From assembly GCA_947301965.1 (NCBI GenBank), contig CAMYUM010000003.1, positions 30,127 to 94,126 of the forward strand: a stretch of 64,000 nucleotides of DNA, in the 5' to 3' direction. Positions 6,210 through 27,519 of the stretch are shown here, piece by piece (position 1 is the stretch's first letter; every line of letters begins with the position of its first letter). The position numbers and the translations under genes are program-made. The notes under the pieces were generated by a model, which did not search any database, was not told where the DNA came from, and saw only the letters and a program-made list of their open reading frames with translations. This stretch comes from an uncultured Azospirillum sp. (GTDB taxonomy: Bacteria; Pseudomonadota; Alphaproteobacteria; RF32; CAG-239).

Positions 6210-7115
6210 ATGACATATATAACGAAAGAGACGGCTGATAATCTTGATTTAATCCGCAAAATTTTGGTAGATAGTGGTTTTTCGGAAATTAAGAATATTA
6301 CGCGTTTGCAAAGCGGCTCGCGTTCGGTTGCCTATTATGCCGATGATTATATCGTGCGTTTTCCCAAAGCGGAAATAATCTGGCAGACCATGCAACGTGA
6401 AAAAATGATAATTGACACGATTTATCCGCATTTAATGCCGTATTTTGAGGGCAAAATCCACAAAATTGAACTGATTGACGGCACTTATCCGTTTTCTGTT
6501 TCCAAGCGTATATATGGTAAAATTTGTGACGGACGGCCGGAAAGCGACTATGCCGTTTTATATCAAAATATTATACCGGAGCGACAGCTTAAACTGGCGC
6601 AAGATTTAGCGATGTTTTTTCATTTAATGCACCAAATTGATTATAAAAAGCTAAATATGCCGGAGCCGACCGAGGCTATTGATAATTGGGACGTTAGCAC
6701 AAGAGAAGATTTTGATTATGCCAGTGTCAGAGAAGCTTTATTGCCACATAAAATTGATTTAGATTACAATAAACCGACTTTGCCAAATACCGATAAAGCC
6801 TTATGCCACAACGATTTAAGCGGCTCTAATCTGTTACTCAATCCCGAAAGCGATGATATTCTCGCCGGCATTATTGACTTTGGAAACATGGTTATTATGC
6901 CAAAATATCAGGATTTTTTCCCGCTTTACAAAATTGACCGCAAATTGGCGATTGATACGCTGACGGAATATAACAAATTGACAACTTCAAAAATAGAGCC
7001 AAAACAACTTGATTATATGATTTTGTGCTACATCGGCTATGGACTTTATAAAACAAAAGACAATTCTTCGCCGTATTTTATGAAACTCTTAAAGCCGTTT
7101 TTTATAAAAAAATAA
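6210..7115 (+). CDS. phosphotransferase-family kinase (APH/choline-kinase-like fold)
   Basis: HNDLSGSNLLL (Brenner HxDxxxxN) and IIDFGN (DFG-like) motifs. Confidence 0.7.
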   Translation: MTYITKETADNLDLIRKILVDSGFSEIKNITRLQSGSRSVAYYADDYIVRFPKAEIIWQTMQREKMIIDTIYPHLMPYFEGKIHKIELIDGTYPFSVSKRIYGKICDGRPESDYAVLYQNIIPERQLKLAQDLAMFFHLMHQIDYKKLNMPEPTEAIDNWDVSTREDFDYASVREALLPHKIDLDYNKPTLPNTDKALCHNDLSGSNLLLNPESDDILAGIIDFGNMVIMPKYQDFFPLYKIDRKLAIDTLTEYNKLTTSKIEPKQLDYMILCYIGYGLYKTKDNSSPYFMKLLKPFFIKK

Positions 7116-8280: not shown

Positions 8281-8357
<77 letters not shown>

Positions 8358-8362
8358 ATAAA

Positions 8363-8396
8363 AATAAAAAACCTTCCTTTATGGAAGGTTTTTTTG
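8363..8396. terminator. bidirectional terminator (ACCTTCC-tttat-GGAAGGT + T7) between tRNA-fMet and the autotransporter
   Basis: perfect 7-bp stem, A-run upstream, T-run downstream. Confidence 0.7.
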
Positions 8397-8403
8397 TTTT
8401 GAA

Positions 8404-11400: not shown

Positions 11401-14400
11401 GGCAAGATTAAGTGTCTCAGCGTTGCCGCCAGATACACCGTTGATGTTAACAGTGCCGTTGGTTGCACCTAAATCATCACTGAGGTTATATGTCGCACCT
11501 TGTTGATTAGCAGTAAAGTTCTTGGTCGTATTAATTGTATCTTGGTTAACCAACTTTAAGGTATCACCCAAAGGACCATCGTCAACTCTGTCTCCTTGAA
11601 CGGTTGTTTCATGATCTTGTATATAACCAATGGAATCATTAGTAGTAGTTGTTGTTGTAAGACCTATAGTTCCGTAATGTTCTATGGTATCTTCTCTATG
11701 CCAACTAGAGAGTTGGTCGTTCCAATTTGTTGTTGCAGTTATTTGATCTGACCCTGTAACGGTTTGTGTAGTTTCAAATAACTTATGTATGTCGCTACCA
11801 CCTAGCTGTGATATAACCGCATCGGATAAAGCGAGCTGTAGGGCAGATCCGGAGGCATTATTTATTATTTGTACTTTATAATTGGCATCTACTCCGGTAA
11901 AGTCTCCGGTGAGGTTCAAATGTGATAGAGTTATGGTGCCGGCAGAATTGTTTGTGGCAGAAATGACATCAGCCTGTTTGCCTGAGGCGTCAAAATCTAT
12001 GGTATAATTTACATTGGCATTACTGTTAAGGTGATTTATTGCATATGTATCATATGAAGACGTGTTGCCGAGATTTATAGAACCGGCAGTAAAGTTAACG
12101 GTGTTGGCATTGGTAAATGTATCCGTGTTAAAAATTAATCCACCGTTACTATCGTTCATAGTTGCATTTGCCATGCCGACGGTTCCATTGATGGTATTAT
12201 TACCGCTTAATGTTAATCCGTAAGCGGCAGTACTTGCGGCAATATTACCATTGAGAATACTGTTTGTAACACCGATTGTAGCAGAACCGTTAGTAACGGT
12301 AGCTATGGCAGAACTTGAATTGACGGTTACGTCATTAAAGTTTAATGCGGTAGCATCATCACCGACTTGAAAACCCTGATGTGAGGCAAGATTAAGTGTC
12401 TCAGCGTTGCCGCCAGATACACCGTTGATGTTAACAGTGCCGTTGGTTGCACCTAAATCATCACTGAGGTTATATGTCGCACCTTGTTGATTAGCAGTAA
12501 AGTTCTTGGTCGTATTAATTGTATCTTGGTTAACCAACTTTAAGGTATCACCCATGTTCTCGTAGGAAGTATCACCGCCTTCTGTTCTGGTAACTGTAAT
12601 GCCAATAGAGTCATCTGTCGTGGTCTTTGTTTTCAGGCCTAGTTGTCCGTAGATTTCTTTATCGGAAATAACGGTTGTTTGATATATTTTGTCCCATGCT
12701 GTTGTGGTAGCAATTGCTTCGTCGGTTGTTGAACCTTCGATCGTTTCTAATAAATGTTCTGAGTCCAGGCCTGATGCAAGTTGCAATTTTAAAGTAGAAT
12801 CGGCATTTCCATTACTAATAATTTGTATTACGTCTTCAGTACTTAAATCTTCGTAATTGCCAATAATATTAATATTCCCAATGGTAATGGTTCCGTGAGA
12901 CTCTGCTGTTGTAGTAATCTTGTCTGCCGTTTTTTCGGTAGCATCAACGTCAATTTTATAGATTAAGCCATTTGAACCTAGCTCAACTGTGTTAATGGTG
13001 TTTGAATCAATATGATCATTAATTTGATTGATTTCTCCGCTATTGTTATCGGTTGTCAGCAAGGCAATTTGATTAAAATTTCCGTAGGTGATGTCGCCAT
13101 TTGTTTGAGTAATTTTACCTAAAATTAATTTAGCACCATTGTATAAATTTACGTTACTGTTAAGTATGTCGTTGTTAAATACATAAGTTCCGCCCTGAAT
13201 GCCGGTTTTGTTGTTAATGTTGATTGTACCTGAAGAATAAAGTCTGCCGCCAAATGAAATTTTTTGCCCCTCGGCAGCGTTTAGTGATATCGTACCGCCA
13301 TCATTGAATATATCACTATAATTTTCGCCGGCTTTGTTGTTATAAAAAACGATATCTCCATCATCACTTGTAGCATCTATAGATATTGTTCCTCGGTTGT
13401 ATATTGCTCCGCCTTTTCCCCCTGCAATATTGCCGAGAAAACTTCCACGGATGCTGCCATATGTGGCGTTACTACCTACATAGATGGCACCACCGGAGCC
13501 ACCGGCTTTGTTGTTAATAAAGTCTCCGATAATGTTATTTATTTTGCTGTTGGTGTTCGTATAGGTATATATTGCTCCGCCATCCTCACCGGCAGTGTTG
13601 GCAATAAAGTCACTGGTAATGGTACCAATAGTGGCACTGTTATGATAGATTGCTCCAGCTTTCCTGAGAGCACTATTACCAATAAAATCACCGGTGATAT
13701 AATTTCTATTTCCTTGTTTTGTATATATTGCACCACCACCATCAGTAGGTTTGGAGGGGGCATCAACTTGCCATAAACCTTCAGATCTGTTACCAATAAA
13801 ATTACCGCGTATTTCATTGATTGTCTGGTCCGTTCCAAGATTTAGCGCGCCGGCATTTTCCTTATATGCTACGTTGCCAATAAAATTGCCAATGACGGAA
13901 GTTATTTTAGTTTTACCACTAATTGCGACAGCTCCGCCTCCATATTTGTGTATGGTAGAATTGTTGATGAAATCACTTTGAATAGTGTCAGTATAGGTGT
14001 GTGCAGAAGTGCTTTTAAGAAATACTGCACCACCTTGACCTGCTTCTTCAATATTAAAAAATAATTTATTATTAACAGCAAGTGTTGCCTCTTCGTCTCC
14101 GCTTCCACTTTCATTTGCGTAACGTGTTTCTGTTTCGGTATAACCAGTGGGCAGAGTATATTGATATATATAGTCTTTGACTGGTGAATCGCCGATGACA
14201 TGTGGTATTTCGAACGAGATTGATCCGGTGGCTGTTGATGTTCCTTCATTCCAAGAAGGATCGGCAGTTCCTGATGTCCAAGATATATTATCAATATCTT
14301 TAAGATTGATGTTGTAATATTGTGTATTACCGCTTCCATCATTGACGGCAAAGTCGTAGCTTTCGGATGTTGCATTAGACCGTTCCCATGCGGTTTCTGC

Positions 14401-14514
14401 TGCCGCTGTTGTCGGTAAGAAAAAGACACCGCAAAGTAAACTGACTGTTGTAGTCAATCTGTGGATTCTTAAGTTTTTTATCGGTTTGTAAGTCAACATT
14501 AGTTTTTCCGTCAC
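8404..14514 (-). CDS. giant autotransporter (2036 aa) with polymorphic-membrane-protein (Pmp)-type GGAI/FxxN repeats, ~330-aa tandem passenger repeats and a C-terminal beta-barrel translocator
   Basis: N-terminal signal (LLCGVFFLPTTAAA); repeated GGAIY/GGAVF + FIGN/FINN motifs; C-terminal ~280 aa ending ...LSLRYAFE with aromatic terminus typical of autotransporter barrels. Confidence 0.8.
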   Translation of the reverse strand: MTEKLMLTYKPIKNLRIHRLTTTVSLLCGVFFLPTTAAAETAWERSNATSESYDFAVNDGSGNTQYYNINLKDIDNISWTSGTADPSWNEGTSTATGSISFEIPHVIGDSPVKDYIYQYTLPTGYTETETRYANESGSGDEEATLAVNNKLFFNIEEAGQGGAVFLKSTSAHTYTDTIQSDFINNSTIHKYGGGAVAISGKTKITSVIGNFIGNVAYKENAGALNLGTDQTINEIRGNFIGNRSEGLWQVDAPSKPTDGGGAIYTKQGNRNYITGDFIGNSALRKAGAIYHNSATIGTITSDFIANTAGEDGGAIYTYTNTNSKINNIIGDFINNKAGGSGGAIYVGSNATYGSIRGSFLGNIAGGKGGAIYNRGTISIDATSDDGDIVFYNNKAGENYSDIFNDGGTISLNAAEGQKISFGGRLYSSGTININNKTGIQGGTYVFNNDILNSNVNLYNGAKLILGKITQTNGDITYGNFNQIALLTTDNNSGEINQINDHIDSNTINTVELGSNGLIYKIDVDATEKTADKITTTAESHGTITIGNINIIGNYEDLSTEDVIQIISNGNADSTLKLQLASGLDSEHLLETIEGSTTDEAIATTTAWDKIYQTTVISDKEIYGQLGLKTKTTTDDSIGITVTRTEGGDTSYENMGDTLKLVNQDTINTTKNFTANQQGATYNLSDDLGATNGTVNINGVSGGNAETLNLASHQGFQVGDDATALNFNDVTVNSSSAIATVTNGSATIGVTNSILNGNIAASTAAYGLTLSGNNTINGTVGMANATMNDSNGGLIFNTDTFTNANTVNFTAGSINLGNTSSYDTYAINHLNSNANVNYTIDFDASGKQADVISATNNSAGTITLSHLNLTGDFTGVDANYKVQIINNASGSALQLALSDAVISQLGGSDIHKLFETTQTVTGSDQITATTNWNDQLSSWHREDTIEHYGTIGLTTTTTTNDSIGYIQDHETTVQGDRVDDGPLGDTLKLVNQDTINTTKNFTANQQGATYNLSDDLGATNGTVNINGVSGGNAETLNLASHQGFQVGDDATALNFNDVTVNSSSAIATVTNGSATIGVTNSILNGTITGDTAFNMTTSGTSQLNGAVTNANITNTGNLTTTAANIADSSITNSSNLYLSGVLAKTIAGTGTTYVNSTLTLNSGAEVAGTLNANSGTITVSNGTITSHDIGAINGNGNLAIDMNLSSSSVDTFNLTNASSGTLTLTSVNILDPSTTSLADDFSVQVLNPATSSTLKLALSSAVQAAFNSTEYIIGTSGATTSTDTIEANTAWNKVYQEHTTTASTDYGKLGLSDDKLSIEVAFSRRDGGTTTDTSLGDTLKLVNNDTTNATKNFTANQQGKTYNVGDDLGDTKGTLNIKGISGGAAETLNLNGHGFQLGEGATALNFDNVTVSGASTIANVTNGSATVGIKDSIINGTITGATAFNMTTSGTNQLNGSVTNANITNTGNLTTKNSTIGNSVVNNGTINLVNTIVNGDITNNGTLNLKTGTALTNAISSTNNNGVINVNNNWTLSNTISGNKINVNNSTLKVGSNYLDNTDTINAKNSKIDIGANTVNLKSMKLDSSSTLSLKINGLEDGQHGLLNITDDMTINSGAKLKATLAQGINYGEVTLIKAGSHNGDFADKDVSHTEEGVDVAENNMYKFIKTKGKFGVFSILQKSTAADVAKEQGARSWVANAAGAWVDEAPFAEGSSGAIAADKLAALAQHDAAGFVHNLKALAPTETAVVQNTVTEQNSILFKTVDSYLRNKQIGLLSSDEFSDVTAWGNPYLSDTKMRTRQNIDGSNSNSRGIIFGLEKELDRAYKFGAGLQIDRTDVDIMSRDIDINSVTGFVYGEYKPCRQFINGIISYGQSNYKEKKYALDDTYNARYDVWVASVASMAGYQFEYFTPEAGFRYYHIKRDRYTDSAAQKVSADNADILRGVISLRFAREIYDIRAEAYLGLTYDFMADKNNTHVYLSNGSGYVVDGDKLRRLGYETSLSFAKSLTENISAAVSYMGTYRSGYQEHTGMLSLRYAFE
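11264..11570. repeat. 307-bp segment identical to 12248-12554 (intragenic tandem repeat unit, period ~984 bp)
   Basis: read directly: identical string ccattgagaatactgtttgtaacaccgattg...ggtatcaccca at both positions. Confidence 0.85.
12248..12554. repeat. second copy of the identical 307-bp segment; a diverged third unit lies at ~10120-10520
   Basis: as above; encodes duplicated DTLKLVNQDTINTTKNFTANQQGATYNLSDD... block. Confidence 0.85.
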
Positions 14515-14604
14515 GTCAAATCTGTATAAGTGTGGTATTACAGACTTTCCAAGTATATTTTATAAAATTTAAAAAAGTTTTAAATTTACGAGTAAAAGGT
14601 ATTT

Positions 14605-16893
14605 TTATCGTCCGTTGTTTTGGTTTTTGCTTAGTGGCAAAATAGTCTTATTGTCTCTAAGCTGTTGCTCGTCAGGTATGCTGGCAATAAGATTATTGGT
14701 TTTATAAAGCCATTGCTTGAAAGCAGGTATGTTCTCTCGGGGCAAAACATATTGCTTACTTGCGCCAAAGTAAGATAAAATCAAAATTTTTTGGTCTTTT
14801 TGCTTTTCAAGTGTCTGCCAAAGCTGTGATTTTAGGCCGTGATCTGCTACGAAGAAGCTACCATCACCGCGTTTAAGTTTCCACTGGTATATAAATTGTG
14901 CCTTAATGGTGTCTGTCTGTTCAATTTGTCTTCCTTGAACACACTGTTTCTTGGGCCTTGATGGCTTGTCAGCTGTTGTTTTAGGAGCTTTTGTCTTACG
15001 AGGTATGCTCTCACCTTTTTGATAGACTGTAAAACCACCAATTTGATAAAGTTTTTGCTTGAAAGCGGGTATGTTTTCTTTAGGCAGAACAAAAGCGTAT
15101 TGAACCTGAACCAAAAGACCATTGTTTTCTTGTTTTTTGATGGTGTTCCAGAGTTGAGATTTTTGTTTGTAAGAGAGTTTTTTCCCATCGCTTGTGAACA
15201 AACGCCATCCGGCACAAAAGGAAGTTTGTGTAATATCAGTTTCAGTCCTCTGGCGCACATGGGGAGCAGGTTTTTTAGGGAATTTTGTTTTTGAGGCAAT
15301 GATGCCTTTTTCCGTTAAAAGCCATCGTTCAAGTGCAGGAATGTTTTCTTCGGGTAAAACATAAGTTCGGTTATTGCCACTAAAAGCATAAATGAAAAAT
15401 TTGTTACGATTTAAAGATTTAAATTCCTTAAAAAGTGCAGATTTTGCTTTTGTACCCTTAATGGATTGTCCGTCAAGCCCATTTAGGTGCCAGTAGCGGA
15501 ATTGTGTTGTTGAAAGGTCGGTTTCAAGCTTTTGGCGTAATGATAGGGTGTCGTTGAGGATTTTTGTCTCTGATGCAATGATGCCCTTTGCTGTAAGAAG
15601 CCATTGCTGGAAGGCGGGTATATTTTCTTGTGGCAAGACATATTGTTTGTAAGTTTTAGATTTGCCGTGTTTAACTGGGATGAAGAGGTTTTGTTGGTTT
15701 AATAGGCATTCTTCAAAAAGTAAGGATTTGGTTTTATGATTCCAGATAGGGTCATTATTTTTATCTCTTACAAACCAAGATCTGCAAAAGTTGTTCTTAG
15801 TTAAATCAGTTTTAAGCAATTGTCTTAAGGGTTCCAGGGGTTTCTGAGCAATTAACCCTTTTTGTTTGATAAGCCATTGCTGAAAAGCGGGTATATTTTC
15901 TTGAGGTAAAACAATAACAGGATGTGCTGAAGAAACACAGACAAATAGATTTGGATTTTTGGATTTAACTTCTTCAAAGAGTGCGATTTTAGTTTCGTAG
16001 TTTAGGACTTTGCCTTTTTCAGACATTATCAGCCAAGAGGTAGAAAATTGTGATTTGGTGATATCGGTATTAAGTTTTGCTCTAACGGATTTTAGAGGCT
16101 CTTGAGCTATAATATGTTTTTTTTGCAAAAGCCAATCCTTAAAGAAATGAATGTTCTCCTGAGGTAAAATAAAAGATGTTTTTCCATGTGACGGAACCAT
16201 GATGAATAGGTCTTTGTGTTTTGAAGATTTAAACTCGTTCCAAAGAGAAGTTCTGATTGGTCCTGGCACAGATTTGCCATTTTCGTTAGTTAGAATCCAA
16301 TGAGTATAAAACTGCAGATTGGTCAAATCAGTTTCAAGCACTTTTCGTTGAGATTTTCTTGTTTTTGAAGCTGTAATGCCTTTTTCTTCAATAAGCCATT
16401 GTTGAAATGCAGAGATGTTTTCCTGTGGTAAGGCGAGGGCGGAAAATCCGGTAGTTGAAGCGGTGACGAAAAGTTCTTGATGTGAATTTCGAAAAGTGTT
16501 CCATAGATTGATTCGATCTTGAATGGTGGGGGCTTTGCCGTTTTTGTCTCTTAAATGCCAAGAATGCACAAAATTGCTTATTAAAAGATCCGTATCGAGC
16601 TTGGGTCTTTGTGACTTGGCCAAAATAAGGCCTTTTTCTGCCCAAAGGCGTTTTTTAAAAGCAGGAATGTTTTCTTCGGGTAAAACGTGAATGAAGTGAT
16701 ATTTTGCTGAAAGCTGAATAAAGAGTTCGGGGGCAAATAACACAAGTTCATCCCAAATCTTTAGTTTTTGTTTTCGGTCAATAGCTTTGCCGTTTTGGTC
16801 CTTCAGACCGCATGCTTTGAAGAACTTGTTTCGGGTTAAATCGGTATCAAGTTTGGTGCGTTCATTTTGAGTAAAAGGAGATGTCTCTTCCAT
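14605..16893 (-). CDS. tandem-repeat protein (762 aa; ~8 units of ~88 aa with VLPQENIPAFQQWL...KGIIA and KLxTDLTxxxF..W motifs); function unknown
   Basis: self-similarity obvious in the translation; no signal peptide; Lys-rich. Confidence 0.75.
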   Translation of the reverse strand: MEETSPFTQNERTKLDTDLTRNKFFKACGLKDQNGKAIDRKQKLKIWDELVLFAPELFIQLSAKYHFIHVLPEENIPAFKKRLWAEKGLILAKSQRPKLDTDLLISNFVHSWHLRDKNGKAPTIQDRINLWNTFRNSHQELFVTASTTGFSALALPQENISAFQQWLIEEKGITASKTRKSQRKVLETDLTNLQFYTHWILTNENGKSVPGPIRTSLWNEFKSSKHKDLFIMVPSHGKTSFILPQENIHFFKDWLLQKKHIIAQEPLKSVRAKLNTDITKSQFSTSWLIMSEKGKVLNYETKIALFEEVKSKNPNLFVCVSSAHPVIVLPQENIPAFQQWLIKQKGLIAQKPLEPLRQLLKTDLTKNNFCRSWFVRDKNNDPIWNHKTKSLLFEECLLNQQNLFIPVKHGKSKTYKQYVLPQENIPAFQQWLLTAKGIIASETKILNDTLSLRQKLETDLSTTQFRYWHLNGLDGQSIKGTKAKSALFKEFKSLNRNKFFIYAFSGNNRTYVLPEENIPALERWLLTEKGIIASKTKFPKKPAPHVRQRTETDITQTSFCAGWRLFTSDGKKLSYKQKSQLWNTIKKQENNGLLVQVQYAFVLPKENIPAFKQKLYQIGGFTVYQKGESIPRKTKAPKTTADKPSRPKKQCVQGRQIEQTDTIKAQFIYQWKLKRGDGSFFVADHGLKSQLWQTLEKQKDQKILILSYFGASKQYVLPRENIPAFKQWLYKTNNLIASIPDEQQLRDNKTILPLSKNQNNGR

Positions 16894-17063
16894 TAAATCA
16901 ATCCTTATAAGGAGTCAATCTAATTGCCGGGTATAACAGATTTGGGCGGAAAAGTCAATGAAGTTTTGTCCAATATGTCCATTCTAAAAAATGTAAGAGT
17001 TTTTAGGAGTTGCGGACTGTTTTTACATAAATTTAATATATTTTTTTGCTGTTTTGTGTTATC

Positions 17064-18353
17064 ATGGACAAAGATAGGGTGATGGAGACTGCTATGGCTG
17101 AAGATGAGGTAAATGAAGATAAAATCAACACTGAGGGATATAAGCGAGATGCGCAATATCAGGTTGATACCCTTAAAGGTGAATTGTTTAGTGCGGGTGG
17201 TTTTAACCTGACGACAAATGCGTTGACTCTCAATTATTCCGGAGATGACTGGTTTGGAACGGCTTGGGCAGAGCATTATACAACTCTGATCCATGAGCTT
17301 CATCATCATGATAATGCATGGGGGGGAATGTATACATATCCGGTAAGCGCCGAGCAGGCCTATAAAATAAATATGCATGATGAGATTTCGGCCAACCTGG
17401 CAGAGTTGGTTGCGATGCGTGAAGAATATTTGAAAAGCGGAGATATTTCGGTTTTTGATGAAAAGGGCAGTAAGTTTGATTTTTATAAAGAGGCGATTGA
17501 AAATGGCAAAATAGAAGTAAACAGCCAAAATGTTTCTAAATTTAATGATGAAATGGGTTTTATGGCTAACGGAGTCCGCGATATGTGGGAACGTGATCGT
17601 GCAGAAAGTTATATTAAACAAAATTCGAGTAACGCAAAACTTTTTTATGATAAGAGTGGAAAATATGGTCGATATTATGATGAAAATTATCAACGGGCGG
17701 TCAAAAAAGCCTATGATATCGGTGGTATCAATTTCAGTGACTACATGGACAGAGATGTCAATATTCCCGAAAAAGGACGGGAGGCGCTTGATGCAATAAA
17801 GTCGCGGAGCAACGAAATAAGTTTTGACAATAATGTTAAAAATGAACCGATTAACAGCCTTCCGCCGCGCGAGCCGGGGTGGCGTGAGCATGAGGATAAG
17901 GACGGCAGTCGGTTTTCTCCGGTGCAAACAAAATCGATAGTTGATTTAAGAAAACCCGTAATTAATCGTCCGCGGGGCTATGTGGGAGCGGAACAGGGGC
18001 AGCAGGTTAGGTCACCTTCTGACCATCCGGAAGCAAATAGAAAAGTTTTAGTGGAAAAAATGCAATCTCAACCATCTGAAAGGACTGCAAATAATTTTGA
18101 AGAATTAAGAGCAAGATTTAGTGCGGATCATGAGCGTTTGCAACAAGTGCGTGAAAAGTTGGGAAATGGACATGAAGAATTATCCTCGGAATCAAAACTT
18201 TCGGAACATAATCAGGCATCGGGAAAAAGTCTTGCCGAGATAATAAGAGAAAAAAGATTTGAATCGGCAACTCCAAGCCGTCCGGCAAATACACAGCCGT
18301 TTTCCAGAGAAGCAATGCAACGAGCTATGTCAGACCGGCAATCCGGCAGATGA
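17064..18353 (+). CDS. HExxH-motif protein (putative zincin-like metalloprotease fold) with long low-complexity C-terminal tail
   Basis: TLIHELHHHDNAWGG motif; the opposite-strand ORF 16920..17927 has I/F-rich antisense composition; start may be 17064, 17082 or 17095 (GGAGA RBS before 17095). Confidence 0.6.
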   Translation: MDKDRVMETAMAEDEVNEDKINTEGYKRDAQYQVDTLKGELFSAGGFNLTTNALTLNYSGDDWFGTAWAEHYTTLIHELHHHDNAWGGMYTYPVSAEQAYKINMHDEISANLAELVAMREEYLKSGDISVFDEKGSKFDFYKEAIENGKIEVNSQNVSKFNDEMGFMANGVRDMWERDRAESYIKQNSSNAKLFYDKSGKYGRYYDENYQRAVKKAYDIGGINFSDYMDRDVNIPEKGREALDAIKSRSNEISFDNNVKNEPINSLPPREPGWREHEDKDGSRFSPVQTKSIVDLRKPVINRPRGYVGAEQGQQVRSPSDHPEANRKVLVEKMQSQPSERTANNFEELRARFSADHERLQQVREKLGNGHEELSSESKLSEHNQASGKSLAEIIREKRFESATPSRPANTQPFSREAMQRAMSDRQSGR

Positions 18354-18394
18354 GTTTGAAAATACTATAATTTGATTTTTTTGAAAGGTGGAAA

Positions 18395-18661
18395 ATGAAA
18401 AAAGCTATATACCTGTTTTTGTTGTGTTTGTTATTGCCGGCGTGTCAGGAGCTTGACGGTTTGTTAAACACAAACAATTTTGTTGTTTCAGAAGCCGATG
18501 ACAATCGCATGGTGGTGTTGAACACCAATACGCGTGTTTATCACGACCCAAAATGTAAAATTGCAAAAAGTTGCTCTAAAAATTGTGTTGTAACGACAAA
18601 ATACGATGCAAAGTCAAAAGGAGCAACCGCCTGCCAAAAGTGTAACGGCGGTAATAAATAG
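18395..18661 (+). CDS. small Cys-rich lipoprotein (88 aa; lipobox LLPAC; YHDPKC...C..C zinc-ribbon-like motif)
   Basis: signal + lipobox; six Cys; GAAAGGTGG RBS. Confidence 0.6.
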   Translation: MKKAIYLFLLCLLLPACQELDGLLNTNNFVVSEADDNRMVVLNTNTRVYHDPKCKIAKSCSKNCVVTTKYDAKSKGATACQKCNGGNK

Positions 18662-18682
18662 TTTAGTTTTTTACAAAAAAAA

Positions 18683-18716
18683 GCGGAACAGCTAGTGCTG
18701 TTTCCACTCTTTTTTG
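18683..18716. terminator. bidirectional terminator between convergent genes (GGAACAGC-tagt-GCTGTTTCC + T-run)
   Basis: A8 upstream, T6 downstream. Confidence 0.65.
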
Positions 18717-18733
18717 ATGTCTTCGAGGTGAGA

Positions 18734-19945
18734 CTAGTTTTTGGCAAAGAAGGTGATGTAGCCTGTAGCGGCTTTTCCGTTAATGGTCATCTGGATTTTG
18801 ACTTCGACGTTGTAGATGTCGTCTTCAACGCTGGTCCAAGTGGTTTTAATGACTCGGACACTGTTTTCATCAAACATCATCTTGTCGGTCAACGGCTCAT
18901 ATAATATGCCATTATCAAGGTACACGTTTTCACGCTTAAACGCTATTTCTGTGGTAAAAACACCAAGATCCAGCTCCAGAATATCGGTATGTAATGTCTT
19001 GAGCAGATATGGAGATCCGCTGGAGAGTTTTTCAATCGACTTGGCATCGATCTTGAGTGTTGCCTTTTTGAACTGGAGGTCTGCACGGTTTGCAATTTTT
19101 ACCACATTGCCATTTGCAGGATGATAGCTGGTGTTTTCGCCGTAAGCATAAGCCGTTTCGGTAAATGTTTCAGTGTCCTTGGTTCCATCGGAATATTCCG
19201 ATGTTACTTTTGCCTTAGAAACAAAACCGGCACGCCCATCCTGATTTTTCAGGGGCAGCAAGCTTTTCTCTACCATATTGCTGGACAGGATATACTTGCC
19301 GTTTATCTTTTCAATCGGGCGTGAAGCTACAACCTCGTTGGTTACAACATAAGTTTCGCGGTTAACCATCACTGTAATTGAGTGATTGTAGATTCTGCGA
19401 GCATAGGCTTTACCATCCTTTTCTACCGAACTGGCGCTTTTTACGGTCATATCATTGTTGACAATCTCGTCATAGCCATAGTATGGCATTGTTATCTTGG
19501 TATAGCCGTCATCGTATTCAGCCACCTGAAAGGTGAGAGGATACTCAAATTTGATTGTGCCATAATCAACCGTATATACCTGTACCGAATCGGTAGTTTT
19601 GATGTATGCGTCGTGTTTTGATGCAGTTGCTTTGCGAGATGTTTTGACTTTTGGTTCATAAGTTGCCCAGTTGGCAACAGTCACATTTTCTTTCACGTTT
19701 TTTAAGCTGTTGATCAGCTCAATCGAGAACTTACTATCGAATTCAGCTCTGGTCTGACCATATACCTGAATCCAGCTTTTGTAAGAGATAGTAGTACCGC
19801 CGTCATTGGCTTCAACAGTCACAGTGGCATCTCTGCCACTGTCGGCAACCTCGCTGGTTGCAATGTTAGAGATAAAGGTCTCCTTCTCGCATGCGGCGAG
19901 GACAATCACCGCCAAGGCAGCGATGATGGTGTTCACGTGTTTCAT
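18734..19945 (-). CDS. lipoprotein of unknown function (403 aa), GC-rich/foreign codon usage
   Basis: MKHVNTIIAALAVIVLAAC lipobox; hand-counted GC ~57% in a 60-nt sample vs ~32-38% in backbone samples. Confidence 0.7.
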   Translation of the reverse strand: MKHVNTIIAALAVIVLAACEKETFISNIATSEVADSGRDATVTVEANDGGTTISYKSWIQVYGQTRAEFDSKFSIELINSLKNVKENVTVANWATYEPKVKTSRKATASKHDAYIKTTDSVQVYTVDYGTIKFEYPLTFQVAEYDDGYTKITMPYYGYDEIVNNDMTVKSASSVEKDGKAYARRIYNHSITVMVNRETYVVTNEVVASRPIEKINGKYILSSNMVEKSLLPLKNQDGRAGFVSKAKVTSEYSDGTKDTETFTETAYAYGENTSYHPANGNVVKIANRADLQFKKATLKIDAKSIEKLSSGSPYLLKTLHTDILELDLGVFTTEIAFKRENVYLDNGILYEPLTDKMMFDENSVRVIKTTWTSVEDDIYNVEVKIQMTINGKAATGYITFFAKN

Positions 19946-20135
19946 AAGCTATAGGATTAAATATTGTTTGACAAAGACCATTAATCAAAATTTTCATCAC
20001 CGGCAATTGTTTGCCTTTTTTTCTAATGATAGCATTAATAATTTTGATTTGAGATTATGTTTTATACCCAGAGGGCGGTTTTTGTCAATATTGTTGAGTT
20101 GAATGATATTGTAAAATTCGGTGCATATGAAAATA

Positions 20136-20175
20136 CGAAAAAACCACTGCAGAGCAAATGCCTGCAGTGGTTTTG
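20136..20175 (-). terminator. rho-independent terminator for the 208+142-aa gene pair (CCACTGCAG...CTGCAGTGG; T-run on minus strand)
   Basis: 9-bp perfect stem; A8 on plus strand is T8 on the minus strand, immediately downstream of the stop at 20188. Confidence 0.65.
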
Positions 20176-20187
20176 GGTGTAAAGATT

Positions 20188-20616
20188 CTAGCTAGAGGAG
20201 AGCTCGGAAAAGTTCTGTTTCTGCAAGATTTGCTTGTAGTTGGAATAACCATTCCTGTCAAACTTCTCAGCGTAGAAGTGTAGGGCGCGATCGTAGAGAG
20301 GAAGTAATTGATATTCCTTTGGACGGTAATCGCAGGGATGCTCCAATACTCTTTCGGTCTCGGAAAGCAGTCTGTTGCACAGGGCATGCTCCAAACCGGC
20401 AGCAAGGCGTTTGAACATCGGCAATTGCGGACGATAATCTTCTCCCTTAGGACCGCTGATCCACTCGATTCGCTGCTGTGCGAGAGCCCAGCAGATCATA
20501 GTCTCGGGAGCTCCTGCAGGGAGAACTTGGTCTTTTACCTGCCACAGTACACCATCAGCATAAGCGACATTCTTGATTGCGGCGTCAAGAAGTTGTCTTT
20601 TTACTTCGTTGTTCAT
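20188..20616 (-). CDS. hypothetical protein (142 aa), GC-rich block
   Basis: ORF with non-biased composition; ~50% GC; no recognisable motif. Confidence 0.55.
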   Translation of the reverse strand: MNNEVKRQLLDAAIKNVAYADGVLWQVKDQVLPAGAPETMICWALAQQRIEWISGPKGEDYRPQLPMFKRLAAGLEHALCNRLLSETERVLEHPCDYRPKEYQLLPLYDRALHFYAEKFDRNGYSNYKQILQKQNFSELSSS

Positions 20617-20668
20617 GGTACAGGGGATTAAAAATCTACATAATCGTGCCTGTTATGTTTGGCAACAA

Positions 20669-21295
20669 TCAATACTCCTCGGCATCGCAGATGACTTTCT
20701 GGTTCACCATCATGTCAGGCAAGCCGCCTTTCATTCCGTAGAGAATGACGGTTGAGACATGGCGATCGAGGATTCTGTCGTAGATATCATGCAGATTCAA
20801 AGAATCTACCGTTATCTCGAAGGCTTTGACTCGGTCCAAATCCACGCTGGGTGGAATCTGCGAAAGGACTTCGTCAGTTCCGGGACGGAAAAAAACATAG
20901 TAGCCGCCGTACCTGTGATAGCAGGTAAACGAGGTAATAACCTCTAGTTCCGGCACTTCCAGGGGGACATCAGTTGTTCCGGTGTTGATGGTTACGATGT
21001 TTTCCGGTTTGAAATTGTAGAGGTAGCTCTGCCGGATATCGCACGGTTTGACGAACACGAGCTTGTCATCGGGCTTAAAATCTCCGTAAGAACGCTTGTC
21101 GCCGTTTCTGTCCAAGCGGACCAGTGGCTTAATTTTTACCGCACGCCTGGTGAGCTCATCAATGGGCATTTGATCTGCCTCTACGATGTGGCGATAGAGC
21201 GTGGCATAATTTTTAAGAGTGATGCCGCAAACCTCTTGCTTCAGTCTTTCCCCGAAAGAGTGAAGTTTTTCCTCGATGTAGTCTGAGTTGTACAT
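20669..21295 (-). CDS. hypothetical protein (208 aa), GC-rich block, likely co-transcribed with the 142-aa gene
   Basis: ORF; ~48% GC; 52-bp spacing to downstream gene, same strand. Confidence 0.55.
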   Translation of the reverse strand: MYNSDYIEEKLHSFGERLKQEVCGITLKNYATLYRHIVEADQMPIDELTRRAVKIKPLVRLDRNGDKRSYGDFKPDDKLVFVKPCDIRQSYLYNFKPENIVTINTGTTDVPLEVPELEVITSFTCYHRYGGYYVFFRPGTDEVLSQIPPSVDLDRVKAFEITVDSLNLHDIYDRILDRHVSTVILYGMKGGLPDMMVNQKVICDAEEY

Positions 21296-21398
21296 ATTGA
21301 AGGGTTTAAAATAATGGGAATAATTCTTATAAAACTGTGCTTTCTATATCATTTTTGGACAAAAAAGTCAAGTTTAAAACTGGAAGAAAGTTTTTTAT

Positions 21399-22361
21399 CT
21401 ATAAGATGACCCTTTTGATAATGATTAAATATTGAGCATATAAATATGCCACATAACAACAAAACATGAAAAGACCTTCGCAACGTCTTAACTTGTCTTT
21501 ATAAAGCAACAAAGGTAATAATAACGTTGTTGAGGCTAGCATAATCCATATGTCAAAAACAAAAAACTGGTATGAGATCTTGACGTCTAAAATAGATGCT
21601 GTGATTCCCATGATAAGAACGATATTCCAAATATTGGATCCCATTACATTACCAAGGGCAATGCCGTTTTGGTGGCGATACGCAGCAACACAGCTTGTAG
21701 CAAGTTCGGGGGCTGATGTTCCGACAGCAATAATGGTGAGCCCGATGACTTCTTGTGAAACACCGCATAAGCTTGCCAGGTTGGCAGCTCCTTTTACCAA
21801 AAAATCTGAACCATAAATAATCCCAGCCAGTCCGATAATGGTAGCTAACAAAATATAGAGCCAATTTTTTCCGATTAAATTGCCGGGAATGTCCAAATCA
21901 GTCTCGTCTTTATTACGCCGAAGCATATAGTAGTTGTAAAATATAAACCAGAATGAAATTAAAAGTAAAACCCAACCGTGCCAACGAGACAGTGTCCCTG
22001 TTAAGCAAAAACATACAAAAATCAAAGTGGTAAAGAACAAAAATACAAAATCACGTATAAAGGCGTTTTTGTTCACGTTAATAGGATAGATTAGGGCAGA
22101 TAGTCCGAGGACAAGTAAAATATTGGCAATATTTGATCCAATAACGTTGCCAAGTGAGATTGCGGAATTTCCGCTAATTGCGGCTTTAACACTAACGGTT
22201 AGTTCAGGCAACGATGTACCAAGTGCGACAATGGTCAAACCAATAATGAGGGTCGAAATTTTTAAGCGATTTGCTATAGCGACAGCACCAAGTACAAAAA
22301 AGTCAGCGCCACAAAGGAGGAATATCAGTCCAATTAAAATAAAAATAACAGCAGTAAGCAT
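21399..22361 (-). CDS. Ca2+/cation antiporter, CaCA family (YrbG-like Na+/Ca2+ exchanger)
   Basis: duplicated alpha-repeat motifs GTSLPEL and GTSAPELATS; 10 TM; AT-rich native-like codon usage. Confidence 0.8.
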   Translation of the reverse strand: MLTAVIFILIGLIFLLCGADFFVLGAVAIANRLKISTLIIGLTIVALGTSLPELTVSVKAAISGNSAISLGNVIGSNIANILLVLGLSALIYPINVNKNAFIRDFVFLFFTTLIFVCFCLTGTLSRWHGWVLLLISFWFIFYNYYMLRRNKDETDLDIPGNLIGKNWLYILLATIIGLAGIIYGSDFLVKGAANLASLCGVSQEVIGLTIIAVGTSAPELATSCVAAYRHQNGIALGNVMGSNIWNIVLIMGITASILDVKISYQFFVFDIWIMLASTTLLLPLLLYKDKLRRCEGLFMFCCYVAYLYAQYLIIIKRVIL

Positions 22362-22460
22362 TTTTAGTCTCTTTGAAAGTTGTACCGACGAAAGTATATA
22401 TTACAATAAAATAAAAGCAATAGATATGTTAAATAACGATTCGGTTTGATACTGCGCATA

Positions 22461-22490
22461 AAAAAAAGCACTTTTTAGGTGCTTTTTTTT
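22461..22490. terminator. bidirectional terminator overlapping the stop of the 148-aa gene (AAGCAC-loop-GTGCTT + T8)
   Basis: A7 / hairpin / T8. Confidence 0.55.
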
Positions 22491-22921
22491 ATAAAGTTGC
22501 CTTGATAACGGAGTTTTGCCGGCTGATTTCCGCCGTAATAATCCGCACTCAGGGTGTTGAATTCATTGTCGTCAAAACCAACCAGCCAACCACAACCATG
22601 CATATAATTACTGTCGGCCAAATAGATGCCTTCAAGTAAAGGTTGTTTAAGCTCGGTCAAATGTTGGTTCAACTGTTCTTTGATTTTGAAAACTTCGTTA
22701 CAAAAGCTAACATCTAGCAGGCGCTGTGTATTGACATCACGGTCGGTGTGCTTTTTGTTTTCGCATTCCTCAAGTTCGATGTAGCGATTGTCTTCGGCAA
22801 AAGGGAAGATGGCTATCGGCTTTAATAAATGACGAAAGCTGAAAGGCAGGCGAACCATTTTGTCATCGTCATAGACGTAGAGTAAATCAAAAGCGTTGGG
22901 TTTACGTTTATTTTTTTCCAT
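22475..22921 (-). CDS. hypothetical protein (148 aa)
   Basis: ORF; moderate GC; own terminator; 275-bp AT-rich upstream region. Confidence 0.5.
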   Translation of the reverse strand: MEKNKRKPNAFDLLYVYDDDKMVRLPFSFRHLLKPIAIFPFAEDNRYIELEECENKKHTDRDVNTQRLLDVSFCNEVFKIKEQLNQHLTELKQPLLEGIYLADSNYMHGCGWLVGFDDNEFNTLSADYYGGNQPAKLRYQGNFIKKST

Positions 22922-23204
22922 TTTAATAATATGACCGTGTCCTTGGCACGGGGTTTAATATTTATATAATAATAGTCTTTTGTTGCGTGTAACATATATA
23001 GGGATACAACATAAGTCAACATTAAAATCAGGCGTATATAGAAATTGAAAATGAAAAAACTTGGTTTTACCACTCTTTAGAAAGGGAGGCTTTAAATTTT
23101 GGTTTTATGTTAAAAAATAGATTTTATTATGTGAAAAATTTGAAGATATTGTGGAATGATGCTCTAAATTGGGAGTATCTGAAAATAAAAAGCGAGCGAA
23201 CAAA

Positions 23205-23240
23205 ATCCGCAGAACATGTGTTCTGCGGATTTTGATTCGG
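23205..23240. terminator. terminator with 12-bp perfect stem (ATCCGCAGAACA-tg-TGTTCTGCGGAT) immediately downstream of the 151-aa gene
   Basis: read directly; T-rich flanks on both sides. Confidence 0.7.
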
Positions 23241-23246
23241 ATTTTC

Positions 23247-23702
23247 TTAAATTTCATACCCACGATAACGTAGGATTTCGATGGTTAAACGCCCGAACAT
23301 GCGAGCTCTTGCGGCGTATTTCATGCATAAATCTCCATGGTTCGTAACGTCTACAGCTATGTCTGTGCGAATATCCCAAAGAGTAAATAAATCCAAAGGG
23401 GCCGTTTTAGGATCAGGCAGTTTTTCCAGATGGTAGAGCATACTATCAACATACAAATGCAAAGCCGCATCTTCCTTTGATAACCTCTCTTTGTTTAGGG
23501 CTTTTTTACAAACATCTGTCTGTACCAGGTCTTTTTGGAGGCCTTCGAAGCACATGCTTTCGTAGTGGCGTCGTGCCAGTAAGCAGGTTGTAGCAATGGG
23601 GCATGTTTTGCATTTGTTGCCACCAACATTGTAGTAGTTGGGTTCTAACTTTGGCTCGGAAGCGAATTCAAAGCCGACATCAAAAGGTGTCAACGGTTCC
23701 AT
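23247..23702 (-). CDS. hypothetical Cys-cluster protein (151 aa; CKTC-x5-C-x10-C)
   Basis: ORF; ~50% GC; metal-binding-like Cys spacing near N-terminus. Confidence 0.5.
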   Translation of the reverse strand: MEPLTPFDVGFEFASEPKLEPNYYNVGGNKCKTCPIATTCLLARRHYESMCFEGLQKDLVQTDVCKKALNKERLSKEDAALHLYVDSMLYHLEKLPDPKTAPLDLFTLWDIRTDIAVDVTNHGDLCMKYAARARMFGRLTIEILRYRGYEI

Positions 23703-23880
23703 AATTTAATAATGCATGGACTTTTACCATAGCAAGTTTTCTTGAGTTATATTTTAGATAATATTGTTAATAATTAGATAATGGATTCGGAGGGTAGATG
23801 AATTTTATCGAAAAAGCAAGAAAAAATTATATAGGATGTGGCTTTATTATTTAGTTGAACGAGACTATGAGTGTGATATT

Positions 23881-23921
23881 TATAATTTTAAAAGAAACCG
23901 CTCCCCCGGTAGGGAGAGCGG
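23881..23921 (-). terminator. terminator for the 160-aa gene (CCGCTCCCC-cggta-GGGAGAGCGG, T-rich on minus strand)
   Basis: imperfect 9-bp stem 18 nt downstream of stop 23939. Confidence 0.5.
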
Positions 23922-23938
23922 AAGATATGCAGGAACTT

Positions 23939-24421
23939 TTAATTCTCCTTCTTTTCTTTTTCCGTCACATACATTGCCTCGCGGCAGTGATAACACTTGG
24001 CCTTGTCCTCGGCGGTGTTGACGGCGTTGATGAGGTTTTCGGGCAGGGGGTGATCCCACTCGCCTTGGTCGTACTTGTTGACCAGAATGACCTCGATTTT
24101 TCCCTTTGCCTGTTCACCTTCGCCCTCTTTGAAGGCTCTGGTAATCCGGTAAACCTCGTGGATGAAGTCGCCTCTGTGGTGGTACGACTTGATGAGGTAG
24201 TAACCGGGGTGGACGGGAACGAGCGCGTGTTGCGCGCAGGATAAATGCCCGCCGCGGCGGATGTAGGTGGCTGTTGGCTTGGTGCCGTCGGCCTTGCAGA
24301 TGATGGTGGCATCACCTGTGTTTGTTGCTCCGCCGCCTTCCTCCCATACAGAAACGAGACCGCTCTTGGTGAGAGGAGCAAGCAAAATTGTGCCTTGGTT
24401 TTTCTTATTCGCCATACACAA
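23939..24421 (-). CDS. hypothetical protein (160 aa; His/Cys motifs SCAQH...SYHH...CYHC, possible zinc-finger/His-Me-like)
   Basis: ORF; ~48-60% GC; start may be the MANKK ATG at 24415. Confidence 0.5.
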   Translation of the reverse strand: MCMANKKNQGTILLAPLTKSGLVSVWEEGGGATNTGDATIICKADGTKPTATYIRRGGHLSCAQHALVPVHPGYYLIKSYHHRGDFIHEVYRITRAFKEGEGEQAKGKIEVILVNKYDQGEWDHPLPENLINAVNTAEDKAKCYHCREAMYVTEKEKKEN

Positions 24422-24737
24422 AAATTTATTTTCCCGTGAGCAGTTCCATTGAATATGATGTTTTTATCTTTCCGACTTTAATCTTTCCCTGTAACACGTA
24501 GTCACAAACCATAAAATGGCGGGCAGTTTGCACATACTCTTTCAGTCGTAGTCAATAAGTAACATATTCGTTGGAATATGCCGGCTCTTGGGGTGCTTTC
24601 TATTGGTTAATATTATTTTGACGGCTTGCATTTGACATAATCAAAAGGAAAGCTCAAACGCGCCAAAACTACTAATTGTCATAATAATCAAATGACAAAC
24701 TTGATTATAGCATATTTTTTGAAGGTTAACAAGAGGG

Positions 24738-25949
24738 TTATTGCTCGGAAGAAACCAGTTCGGCAAATTTTTGTGCCATGGTGGGGTTGTTTTTGGTCAA
24801 TTTCTTTACCGAAAGATCTTGAGCTTTGTTATTGGCAAGCCGCAGGTTGCTTTCTGATGACAAGAGAGCGTCTTTGGTCTTTTGCAGGTGGTCTATGGTC
24901 TTGTCAATCTCCTCAATGGCTTTGCGAAATTTGTCGCTGGCCAATTGATAATTACGCCCGAATTTTTCTTTGAAATCGTTCATGTCATCTTCAAAGTGAG
25001 AAATATCAATGTTTTGATTTTTATATTCGACCAATTGACGGCGGTATTGCACCGAATTTAGGGCGGCATTGCGCAAAACAGTTATCATTGAAATGAAAAA
25101 CTGGGGGCGAATTACATACATTTTGGGGTATTTGTGAGAAACATCAACAATCCCGGAATTATATAGTTCGTTGTCGGATTCCAAAAGCGAGACCAAAACC
25201 GCATATTCGCAGCCTTTTTCCTGGCGGTCTTTGTCAAGTTCTTTGAAAAAGTCCTCGTTTTTGTGTTTGGTGGCGGTGGTGTCCATCTCGTTTTTCATTT
25301 CAAACATAATGGAGATGAACTCAATGCCGTCGGTAGTGCTTTCGCGAAAAATATAGTCGCCTTTGCTACCGGTGCGGGCATCGTTGTCTTTTTCAAAATA
25401 AGCATTAGGAAAAGCACCGGCGCGGATTTTGTTAAACTCGGTCTCACAATGTTGTTCCAAAGTTTCGCCGACCATTTTGGTAGACATTTTGGTTTTGAGA
25501 TCTTTATAAAACTCAATGGTTTCGTCTTTGGCTTTGAGCTGAATTTCAAAATTTTCTTTTAGAGATTTTTCTTTGATTTCGCTGTCTTTTTCAGTTTCTT
25601 TTATCTTGCTTTCAAGCAAAATAATTTTTTGGTCTTTGGCGGCAATCTCGTCTTTTTGTTGATTAATGGCGTTAGTTACGGCGAGTTCCTGCGCTTGTCT
25701 GCCGCTTTCAATTTGGGATTTTAGGCGTTCAATCTCTTGTTTGAGTTCGGAGAGGCTTTTTTCTTTTTCGGCTTGTGCCTGGGTGGTCAACAGTCTGAGT
25801 TCAATGTCTTTGTCTTTAAGGAGTTGACGCTCGCGTTCCTGCAGGTCTTTAGTAAATTCGCTGTTGCGAACCTGGCTGACAATGGCGGCATATCCGCTCT
25901 CATCAACAGTAAAAACTTCGCCGCATTTGGGGCATTTGATTTCAGGCAT
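24738..25949 (-). CDS. DUF2130-like protein: N-terminal zinc ribbon (CPKCGEVF), long coiled coil, C-terminal globular domain
   Basis: [24 protein letters not shown] start; heptad-rich 40-170 region; architecture matches DUF2130 family as I recall it. Confidence 0.6.
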
Positions 25950-26952: not shown

Positions 26953-27519
26953 ATGGAAAAAATCGCAAGCTACTTTCGATTTGACATTACGCAGACAGTG
27001 CAGGTTTTGCTCTATAAAATGCGTATGGGAAACGGCAAGCGCTGGTCGGTTGAAAAAACTGCCGGCGGGCTGATTTTGCACCAGATTTATGAAGAAGGTG
27101 CAGAAAAAGAGGACAACCAAACCAAGGTCGAACTCAAGGGAAAACATACAATGATTATCACTACGGTGAGCGGGTTTGTGTACACAATTGTGGATAAGGA
27201 ACCCGACGGCGCCGAGGTGAGCTTTCATGGTCCGCTCAATGCGTTGCTGATGCAGTCGCTGATGCCGCGCATGACCTATGTCCCCGGGACGCTTATCGGC
27301 ATGAACAACCTGATGGACGACTACGTCTCTATAGGTGAGTATATGCGGTTGCGCCAAGAACGTCACAAAGGTAATGGTGAAGAAAATCCTCAAGACCGGT
27401 TCGGATGGCGTATCAATATGCGTTTCAACAACGAGCTGGTGCCGTGGTTCCCGGCCTTTAACGGCAACAAAAATGTTCCCAAAGACAAGGTCAGGAAAGG
27501 CAAGTTTACCCGTCGGTAA
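26953..27519 (+). CDS. hypothetical protein (188 aa), GC-rich orphan
   Basis: ORF; ~50% GC; own promoter candidate and terminator. Confidence 0.5.
   Translation: MEKIASYFRFDITQTVQVLLYKMRMGNGKRWSVEKTAGGLILHQIYEEGAEKEDNQTKVELKGKHTMIITTVSGFVYTIVDKEPDGAEVSFHGPLNALLMQSLMPRMTYVPGTLIGMNNLMDDYVSIGEYMRLRQERHKGNGEENPQDRFGWRINMRFNNELVPWFPAFNGNKNVPKDKVRKGKFTRR

Follow-up and report, generated by a model that had tools for sequence, protein, structure and literature searches.

When three small genes stand side by side on one strand, each followed by its own hairpin, do they form a system, or have they met by chance? The question is raised by a locus in a 64,000-nucleotide stretch of DNA (hereafter the window; GC content 41%) from an uncultured Azospirillum sp. 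(GenBank assembly GCA_947301965.1, contig CAMYUM010000003.1, positions 30,127 to 94,126), in which genes that we call C, B and A lie on the minus strand between a DUF2130 gene and a CaCA antiporter gene (Table 1). We find that the trio is not a system but a set of neighbours by accident of insertion, because its families are unrelated, were not found all together in any locus examined outside the species’ own cluster and sit in mosaic synteny with a sister genome. Probably, these are three unrelated and independently acquired accessory genes, each a self-contained unit, standing next to one another in a variable stretch of the chromosome of a rumen alphaproteobacterium.

Three real genes from unrelated families

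The three minus-strand open reading frames (ORFs), which an earlier, sequence-only reading of this DNA had called at 148, 151 and 160 amino acids, are all found where it placed them, with C being 158 residues long on record: the 160-residue version (23939–24421) begins at a TTG, and the protein on record begins at the ATG at 24415. The spacers, then given as 240–320 bp, measure 325 bp between A and B, 236 bp between B and C, and 322 bp between C and the upstream DUF2130 gene. Evolutionarily, the ratio of nonsynonymous to synonymous substitution rates (dN/dS) against orthologues is 0.058 for A (compared with L015, the sister genome of another species, whose core proteins are 87–91% identical), 0.089 for B and 0.10–0.14 for C, beside 0.05–0.08 for the flanking DUF2130 and patatin genes. 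Because these ratios are low and homologues of each gene keep invariant residues, A, B and C are real genes under purifying selection. Compositionally, the 52 genes of the window average 0.424 ± 0.032 in GC and 0.429 ± 0.068 in GC at third codon positions (GC3), and C is the sole deviant of the trio (GC 0.543, GC3 0.686), while A (0.409 and 0.456) and B (0.439 and 0.441) are typical of the window. The description of all three as GC-rich and compositionally foreign thus holds for C and fails for A and B.

Functionally, profile searches of Pfam, NCBIfam, PHROG and PADLOC returned no match for A, B, C or the neighbouring orphans, PDB sequence-profile searches with the three proteins gave nothing significant, and no paralogue of any of them was found in the window. 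As judged by profile–profile comparison, the three families are also mutually unrelated, with hhalign probabilities of at most 0.2% among them. The gene order DUF2130-C-B-A-CaCA occurs only in strains about 98% identical to the window (L001–L003 and one assembly at NCBI). Elsewhere the families part company: B homologues (59–72% identity) stand alone in six other loci, five of which come from rumen metagenome-assembled genomes (MAGs) labelled “Alphaproteobacteria bacterium”, beside SIR2/PRA-PH or YgjV/sodium-solute-symporter (SSF) genes, and neither A nor C lies within 5–10 kb of them; C homologues (56–67% identity) are found near PcfJ/DUF1015, near LptF/G, near an RND gene and a resolvase, and in a fourth context; and an A homologue (60% identity) is found near hfq-hflX. 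None of the loci examined outside the window species’ own cluster held all three genes. The togetherness that the sequence-only reading implied, and for which it had proposed a co-occurrence check in other genomes, is contradicted on each count: the families are unrelated, they do not co-occur beyond their own cluster, and L015 lacks B.

Terminator hairpins and mosaic synteny

A strong stem-loop follows each gene, as had been claimed, and all three fold far better than shuffled sequence, with z-scores of −4.6 for A, −9.1 for B (−27.8 kcal/mol for 23201–23234) and −3.7 for C (−20.3 kcal/mol for 23898–23921). Each combines a stable stem-loop with a T-run near the stop codon, in the form of a putative intrinsic (Rho-independent) terminator; that of A has the bidirectional form and holds the TAA stop codon of A inside its loop. 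The accompanying claim of an unusual, operon-free packing was overstated, given that hairpins of −15 kcal/mol or lower lie downstream of about 17 of the 52 window genes. Such hairpins are, however, enriched between 18.7 and 28.9 kb, where they follow 7 of 11 genes versus 10 of 41 elsewhere (Fisher p = 0.027).

Nucleotide comparison with L015 reveals three shared blocks. The first runs from the 188-residue orphan through the DUF2130 gene and C and ends at window position 23887, just past the terminator of C; the second (23069–22461) holds A with 148 bp of upstream sequence and ends exactly at the terminator of A; and the third (8363–7270) holds tRNA-Met, PgpA and tRNA-Pro. Between the first two, in the syntenic slot of the B cassette, L015 carries a type-II-like cas1-cas2 pair with an LPD3-domain protein (L015 7608–9498), and no CRISPR array was found in 14.5 kb and no cas9 was called there; the set looks like a remnant adaptation module. 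Between the second and third, the 14 kb of the window that encode a 2036-residue PMP-repeat protein, a 762-residue repeat protein, orphans of 435/335, 403, 142 and 208 residues and the CaCA antiporter are replaced in L015 by two small ORFs. Since each gene has a strong terminator and the L015 homology breakpoints fall at terminators, A, B and C are supported as separate predicted transcription units, and the claim that each is monocistronic gains the same support. We posit that the terminators would insulate each unit and coincide with the junctions where related genomes have exchanged segments.

One strain offers a side view of the terminator of A. In L002 (around 6447–6451, equivalent to window positions of about 22362–22470), a deletion runs from the loop of this terminator to the start of the CaCA gene, so that A directly adjoins a CaCA ORF that is called 13 codons longer. 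Either the terminator is dispensable in L002, or the deletion is an assembly artefact.

Gene C and its phage-associated family

Homologues of C fall into 30 clusters, down to 34% identity, and include 57 loci on IMG/VR viral contigs that range from 0.26 to 0.66 in GC. In these phages, C genes lie within runs of small same-strand genes, with neighbours that include Ant anti-repressors, repressors, SSB and a DnaC-like loader, and further contexts comprise a dUTPase/NinG/ParB-methylase set, an M78-peptidase/helix-turn-helix module and Zot; no single conserved neighbour family was found. The C family is typical of early, lysogeny-control and accessory regions of temperate phages. A C-like domain also forms the N-terminal part of a 346-residue “hypothetical protein” in four Fusobacterium phages. 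In these phages, which measure 174–180 kb and are represented here by Fusobacterium phage JD-Fnp1 (JDFnp1_34; L081 4016–5056), the domain is extended at its C-terminal end by about 210 residues; no Pfam domain was found in this extension or in other long members of the family.

Structurally, the confident AlphaFold2 (AF2) model of C has seven beta-strands and one helix, with the YHC motif placed after the helix (predicted local distance difference test score, pLDDT, 90.2; predicted template modelling score, pTM, 0.83). Foldseek found nothing in the PDB with an E-value below 0.06 or a template modelling (TM) score above 0.3, and no convincing match overall in BFVD. Across 65 sequences of the family, residues E25, G27, G28, G34, H63, K138, Y142, H143 and C144 are invariant, which suggests a catalytic or ligand-binding site. 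The sequence-only reading had singled out a motif, SCAQH...SYHH...KCYHC, and had thought it compatible with a zinc ribbon or a His-Me-finger nuclease. The motif stands in part: H63, H143 and C144 are invariant, while C59 and C141 vary (with N, D or E replacing C141 in part of the family) and certain homologues have RR for the HH pair.

The nuclease interpretation fares worse, and we consider it highly improbable. It could appeal to the C-terminal CYHC and conserved His residues, and to a BFVD structural neighbour annotated “putative nuclease” (TM 0.47, E 0.13). Against this, only C144, H143 and H63 are invariant among the proposed Cys/His ligands, leaving a single invariant Cys where a zinc ribbon has two knuckles with four conserved Cys/His ligands; no beta-beta-alpha unit surrounds the motif in the model, which so differs from the beta-hairpin and following helix, with catalytic His and metal ligand, of the His-Me fingers; and neither Foldseek against the PDB, nor Pfam, nor PDB sequence searches returned a match. 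With all 65 members searched against Pfam at E ≤ 1, only scattered noise was obtained, and no Zn_ribbon match. The best PDB-profile matches, the GspA amidase (E 0.3) and PRP3 (E 0.4), are non-significant and serve as leads only. The former brings to mind the CHAP and NlpC/P60 Cys-His hydrolases, in that a 29-residue stretch of C (G-x-x-x-W-E-x-G-G-x-x-x-T-G-x-x-I-I) aligns to the strand bearing the amidase His and C likewise has an invariant Cys, His and Glu. This alignment is, however, not significant, its catalytic His pairs with a variable residue of C, the Cys is C-terminal in C, and papain-like folds were not recovered by Foldseek. We infer that C may be an enzyme whose active site is of the Cys/His hydrolase type, or else a protein that binds a ligand or RNA in phage–host conflict.

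The base composition of C bears on how long it has been resident. Its copies have a GC3 of 0.64–0.69 (the window; L015 7001–7480; L007 6001–6477) in genomes of 0.38–0.41 GC, and the synonymous divergence (dS) between the window and L015 is 0.75 for C and 1.08–1.15 for the flanking genes; the residence of C at the DUF2130 site predates the split between the window species and that of L015, yet the drift towards host composition that would be expected has not taken place. In phages, C copies exceed their neighbours in GC chiefly at codon positions 1 and 2 (by 0.056), and by only 0.044 at position 3. An overlapping gene was considered as the cause of the high GC and rejected, as the alternative-frame ORFs shrink with distance (169, 137 and 94 codons).

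The C cassette and its putatively structured leader

Upstream of C lies a 5' leader, comprising a domain I (24669–24615) and a domain II (24592–24433), and a promoter candidate whose position and TTGnnA / TGnTAnAnT pattern are kept in four lineages. Counterparts of the two together (window 24416–24732) are present at L085 10744–11072, L086 5940–6274 and L083 3570–3898, and a metagenome scan with three blocks of the leader returned five loci, in all of which a C ORF begins 16–19 nt after the match. In L086, where the C protein is 56% identical and the context is another one, blastn at E 1e-4 finds the leader only (24654–24428, 77% identity over 238 nt) and no match to the C coding sequence; in nucleotide sequence, the coding region of C is less well conserved than the promoter and leader ahead of it. 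Folding of six sequences from about four lineages with RNAalifold yielded a consensus of 56 pairs in 11 helices, with 96.1% of cells pairing and 12 compensatory pairs, versus 5.0 ± 1.6 in shuffled alignments (0 of 500 reached 12) and 0–2 in controls whose partners were slid by 1–3 columns. Many of these pairs are G-U, which ties the structure to the sense strand of C.

The leader has no counterpart in Rfam: a cmscan of 22300–24800 at E ≤ 1 gave only chance matches on the terminators, and a scan of the whole window at gathering thresholds gave two tRNAs and nothing else. A covariance model built from the leader matched only upstream of one C sub-clade, with no match upstream of the phage copies or of those in L007 and L082. 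The latter two have a second type of upstream sequence in common (TAGGTATTT...TTTCTCA.GTTGTC; L007 5816–6000 and L082 1–147), which suggests that C has leaders or promoters of no fewer than two types. Downstream, GC-rich hairpins follow chromosomal copies of C, including those in L015, L007, L082 and L083, and a CCGC...GCGG stem is common to four of five, whereas none of the phage copies examined has a terminator of its own.

We read the C cassette (24732–23888: promoter, structured leader, ORF and terminator) as a self-contained, moron-like unit that occurs in at least three chromosomal contexts. Phage morons are autonomous promoter-gene-terminator units, described for lambdoid prophages. The C cassette resembles them in its predicted promoter, its single ORF of a phage family, its own terminator, its deviant GC and its insertion between unrelated genes, but it differs in residing in a bacterial chromosome without a surrounding prophage, in having been kept vertically since before two species split, and in its long, conserved and structured leader, as well as in the lack of terminators on the phage copies. 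The leader itself, a candidate new cis-regulatory RNA, resembles riboswitches and other structured 5' leaders in being long and multi-helical, in its compensatory changes and in its fixed distance to the start codon. Unlike them, it matches no Rfam family, shows no evident terminator or helix sequestering the Shine-Dalgarno sequence, is drawn from about four lineages, and has no known ligand or partner. Taken together, we posit that a phage early or lysogeny-control gene would have become a moron-like chromosomal cassette in a clade of rumen bacteria, landing in several chromosomal contexts, and that its leader probably controls C expression at the RNA level.

Among strains about 98% identical (L001 and L002), most single-base differences to the window fall in C and its leader (23939–24737), and B, A and their spacers (22362–23938) are almost invariant.

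Genes B and A

Gene B forms a tiny family, found here only in MAGs of rumen Alphaproteobacteria: 12 clusters came from a word-indexed search, and an exhaustive profile search picked out 14 among 1.84 billion representatives; no phage or plasmid relatives were found. The CKTC-x5-C-x10-C motif that the sequence-only reading had pointed out is present and proves to be a conserved four-Cys site, C31-x2-C34-x5-C40-x10-C51, with all four Cys invariant in 11 sequences down to 32% identity, alongside N25, F52, L92 and a C-terminal LRxRGY (L144-R-x-R-G-Y149). A metal-binding role is supported, though not proven, by these four Cys, which are most likely the ligands of either a [4Fe-4S] cluster or zinc. 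FNR is a [4Fe-4S] protein, as are the WhiB-like (Wbl) proteins and NUBP1, and B is reminiscent of this group in its small size (151 residues), its predicted helical fold and its C-x2-C-x5-C triad with a fourth invariant Cys. The CX2CX5C sub-motif ligates [4Fe-4S] clusters in Wbl proteins and in the N-terminus of NUBP1 (PMC7363131, PMC10108433), and the cysteine order of Wbl proteins is CxnCx2Cx5C (PMC7363131). In B, by contrast, the fourth Cys stands 10 residues after the triad and not before it, the G[V/I]WGG motif and a Pfam Whib match are lacking, and the carriers are rumen Alphaproteobacteria and not actinomycetes; the identification of B as a Wbl protein was rejected on all four points. 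With low confidence, B could be a small Fe-S or zinc protein that serves, in a redox- or metal-dependent manner, as a regulator or adaptor.

Gene A has homologues in 14 clusters at 58% identity or more, none of them named, and no phage or plasmid relatives were found. Its promoter candidate lies inside the 148-bp upstream block conserved with L015. A, in short, is a lineage-specific protein, and the analyses here gave no clue to its biochemistry. The same conserved block holds a 17-nt hairpin (CCGTGCCAAGGACACGG, 22935–22951), 14 nt upstream of the A start codon, which might control translation or terminate antisense transcription.

Weighing the explanations

Could the trio nevertheless be one three-component system, such as a defence, toxin-antitoxin or metal-dependent nuclease module, laid out in three transcription units? 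The same-strand order C-B-A is kept in L001–L003 and in an NCBI assembly, the function of all three genes is unassigned, and the neighbourhood varies among genomes as it does in defence islands. Yet the relatives that keep the order are those near-identical strains, beyond which no co-occurrence within 5–10 kb was seen, L015 retains C and A with cas1-cas2-LPD3 in place of B, viral relatives exist for C only, and PADLOC gave no matches; we regard a system as very improbable. Less credible still is an integron-like cassette array (cluster of attC sites lacking an integron-integrase, CALIN), that is, promoterless ORFs each with an attC hairpin. Small same-strand ORFs that are each followed by an inverted repeat, and replaced cassette by cassette between genomes, do superficially resemble integron dynamics, but a regex scan found the RYYYAAC...GTTRRRY pair nowhere in 22300–24800, the hairpins are short perfect stems with U-tails in the form of intrinsic terminators, spacers of 236–325 bp with promoter-like sites separate the ORFs, and no ORF of the island matches an integrase family. 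With neither attC-like sites nor integrase-family matches found, the array is effectively refuted. A more serious, though still unlikely, competitor concerns the region upstream of C, which might act at the DNA level, as one end of a small mobile element or as a site of recombination or replication, or else be a separate small RNA gene travelling with C. The promoter-leader-ORF-terminator unit is present in three or more unrelated settings, so something must mobilise it; neither sequestration of the Shine-Dalgarno sequence nor an attenuator terminator can be recognised in the leader; and single-sequence folding of the leader is weak (z-score −0.93). This competitor is countered by the strand-specific G-U pairs, which agree with the sense of C, by the position-conserved promoter upstream, by the start of the ORF 16–19 nt past the last helix in every copy, and by the lack of terminal inverted or direct repeats around the cassette.

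Several observations also weigh against our preferred explanation of three independently acquired, self-contained units, the last with a leader-controlled C. The folding z-score just given speaks against the leader as well, and its consensus structure comes from about four independent lineages and was scored on the alignment from which it was derived. The promoters of the trio are consensus matches only, and the search upstream of B found no consensus match of at least 9 of 12. The AF2 model of B is helical and of low confidence (pLDDT 56.7), so that the geometry of its metal site cannot be judged from it. C keeps its high GC3 despite long residence, which a simple recent foreign acquisition does not explain. 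From the perspective of mobility, the region resembles tRNA-linked genomic islands in its variable content, which abuts a tRNA, lies between tRNA-Met/PgpA and DUF2130 flanks and is rich in orphans and deviant-GC genes. It departs from them in that no ORF of the island matched an integrase family and no mobility genes were found, that no transposase marks it as a classical island, that the 25-nt 3' end of tRNA-Met was not found a second time as a possible att site, even with up to three mismatches allowed, and that the variation proceeds cassette by cassette and not as one block. On balance, three independent accessory units remain the probable explanation. A bolder version, in which C is a phage effector with a new fold (an enzyme of the Cys/His kind, or a protein binding RNA or a ligand) used in phage–host conflict, domesticated in rumen Alphaproteobacteria as a mobile single-gene cassette and governed by an undescribed leader that acts as a riboswitch or as an autoregulatory site for C, is put forward tentatively, as a possibility that we would not yet favour.

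Features of the variable region

Table 1 Features of the locus and its borders, in window coordinates.
Feature	Position	Strand	Description
tRNA-Met	8281–8357	plus	delimits the variable region on its far side, in L015 as in the window
Segment without L015 counterpart	8364–22460		14 kb; from synteny comparison
Terminator of A (predicted)	22460–22490	minus	A8-GCAC-loop-GTGC-T9; −15.6 kcal/mol, z −4.6
Gene A	22475–22921	minus	148-aa ORF; lineage-restricted orphan without metal motif
Promoter candidate of A	22991–23019	minus	sigma-70-like TTGACT-17-TATGTT; consensus match only
B cassette	23070–23886	minus	no L015 counterpart
Terminator of B (predicted)	23196–23236	minus	perfect 16-nt arms (23201–23216 / 23219–23234), then U-rich tail
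Gene B	23247–23702	minus	151-aa ORF; predicted helical
Terminator of C (predicted)	23888–23921	minus	CCGCTCTCCC-TACC-GGGGGAGCGG then UUUCUUUU
Gene C	23939–24415	minus	158 aa from ATG (protein on record); unannotated phage-associated family
Leader of C	24416–24697	minus	5' leader of ~285 nt; 11-helix consensus; from alignments
Promoter candidate of C	24704–24732	minus	extended −10, TTGTTA-17-TGCTATAAT; begins 6 nt past the DUF2130 stop codon
DUF2130 gene	24738–25949		other border of the variable region

The genes flanking the trio encode DUF2130, patatin and CaCA antiporter proteins and orphans, and a scan of seven proteins gave no PHROG match for any of them (E < 0.01). Four of the orphan ORFs, at 20188–20616 (142 residues), 20669–21295 (208), 26953–27519 (188) and 18734–19945 (403), had no match at E < 0.01 in four profile libraries, and two of them have a GC3 of 0.61. 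Those of 142, 188 and 403 residues each have a strong terminator of their own, and the 208-residue ORF lies 52 nt upstream of the 142-residue one; no close viral relatives of the 208-, 188- and 403-residue orphans were found. Further along, two genes missing from the sister genome lie on the minus strand, one (8404–14514) encoding a 2036-residue protein with a match to Chlamydia-PMP-type repeats and the other (14605–16893) a 762-residue protein with internal repeats of about 90–130 residues. ORFs of 335 residues (16920–17927, minus strand) and 435 residues (17046–18353, plus strand) overlap almost fully on opposite strands and are both intact in L001; the gene caller picked the 435-residue frame, and neither has a Pfam or PADLOC match.

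Implications

The observation that raised this question is partly confirmed and its interpretation partly supported: what had been framed as three linked metal-binding genes in odd packing is mostly ordinary, namely terminator-insulated accessory orphans in a flexible region. The remaining interest lies in the C cassette, with its unannotated family, unmatched predicted fold and candidate leader, and less so in the four-Cys protein B, which could represent a new, small regulator based on Fe-S or zinc in an uncultured gut lineage. The leader is a testable candidate for a new cis-regulatory RNA, supported by covariation and without an Rfam match. More broadly, a family that is unannotated yet widespread in phage early regions makes C a candidate for new counter-defence or host-takeover proteins.

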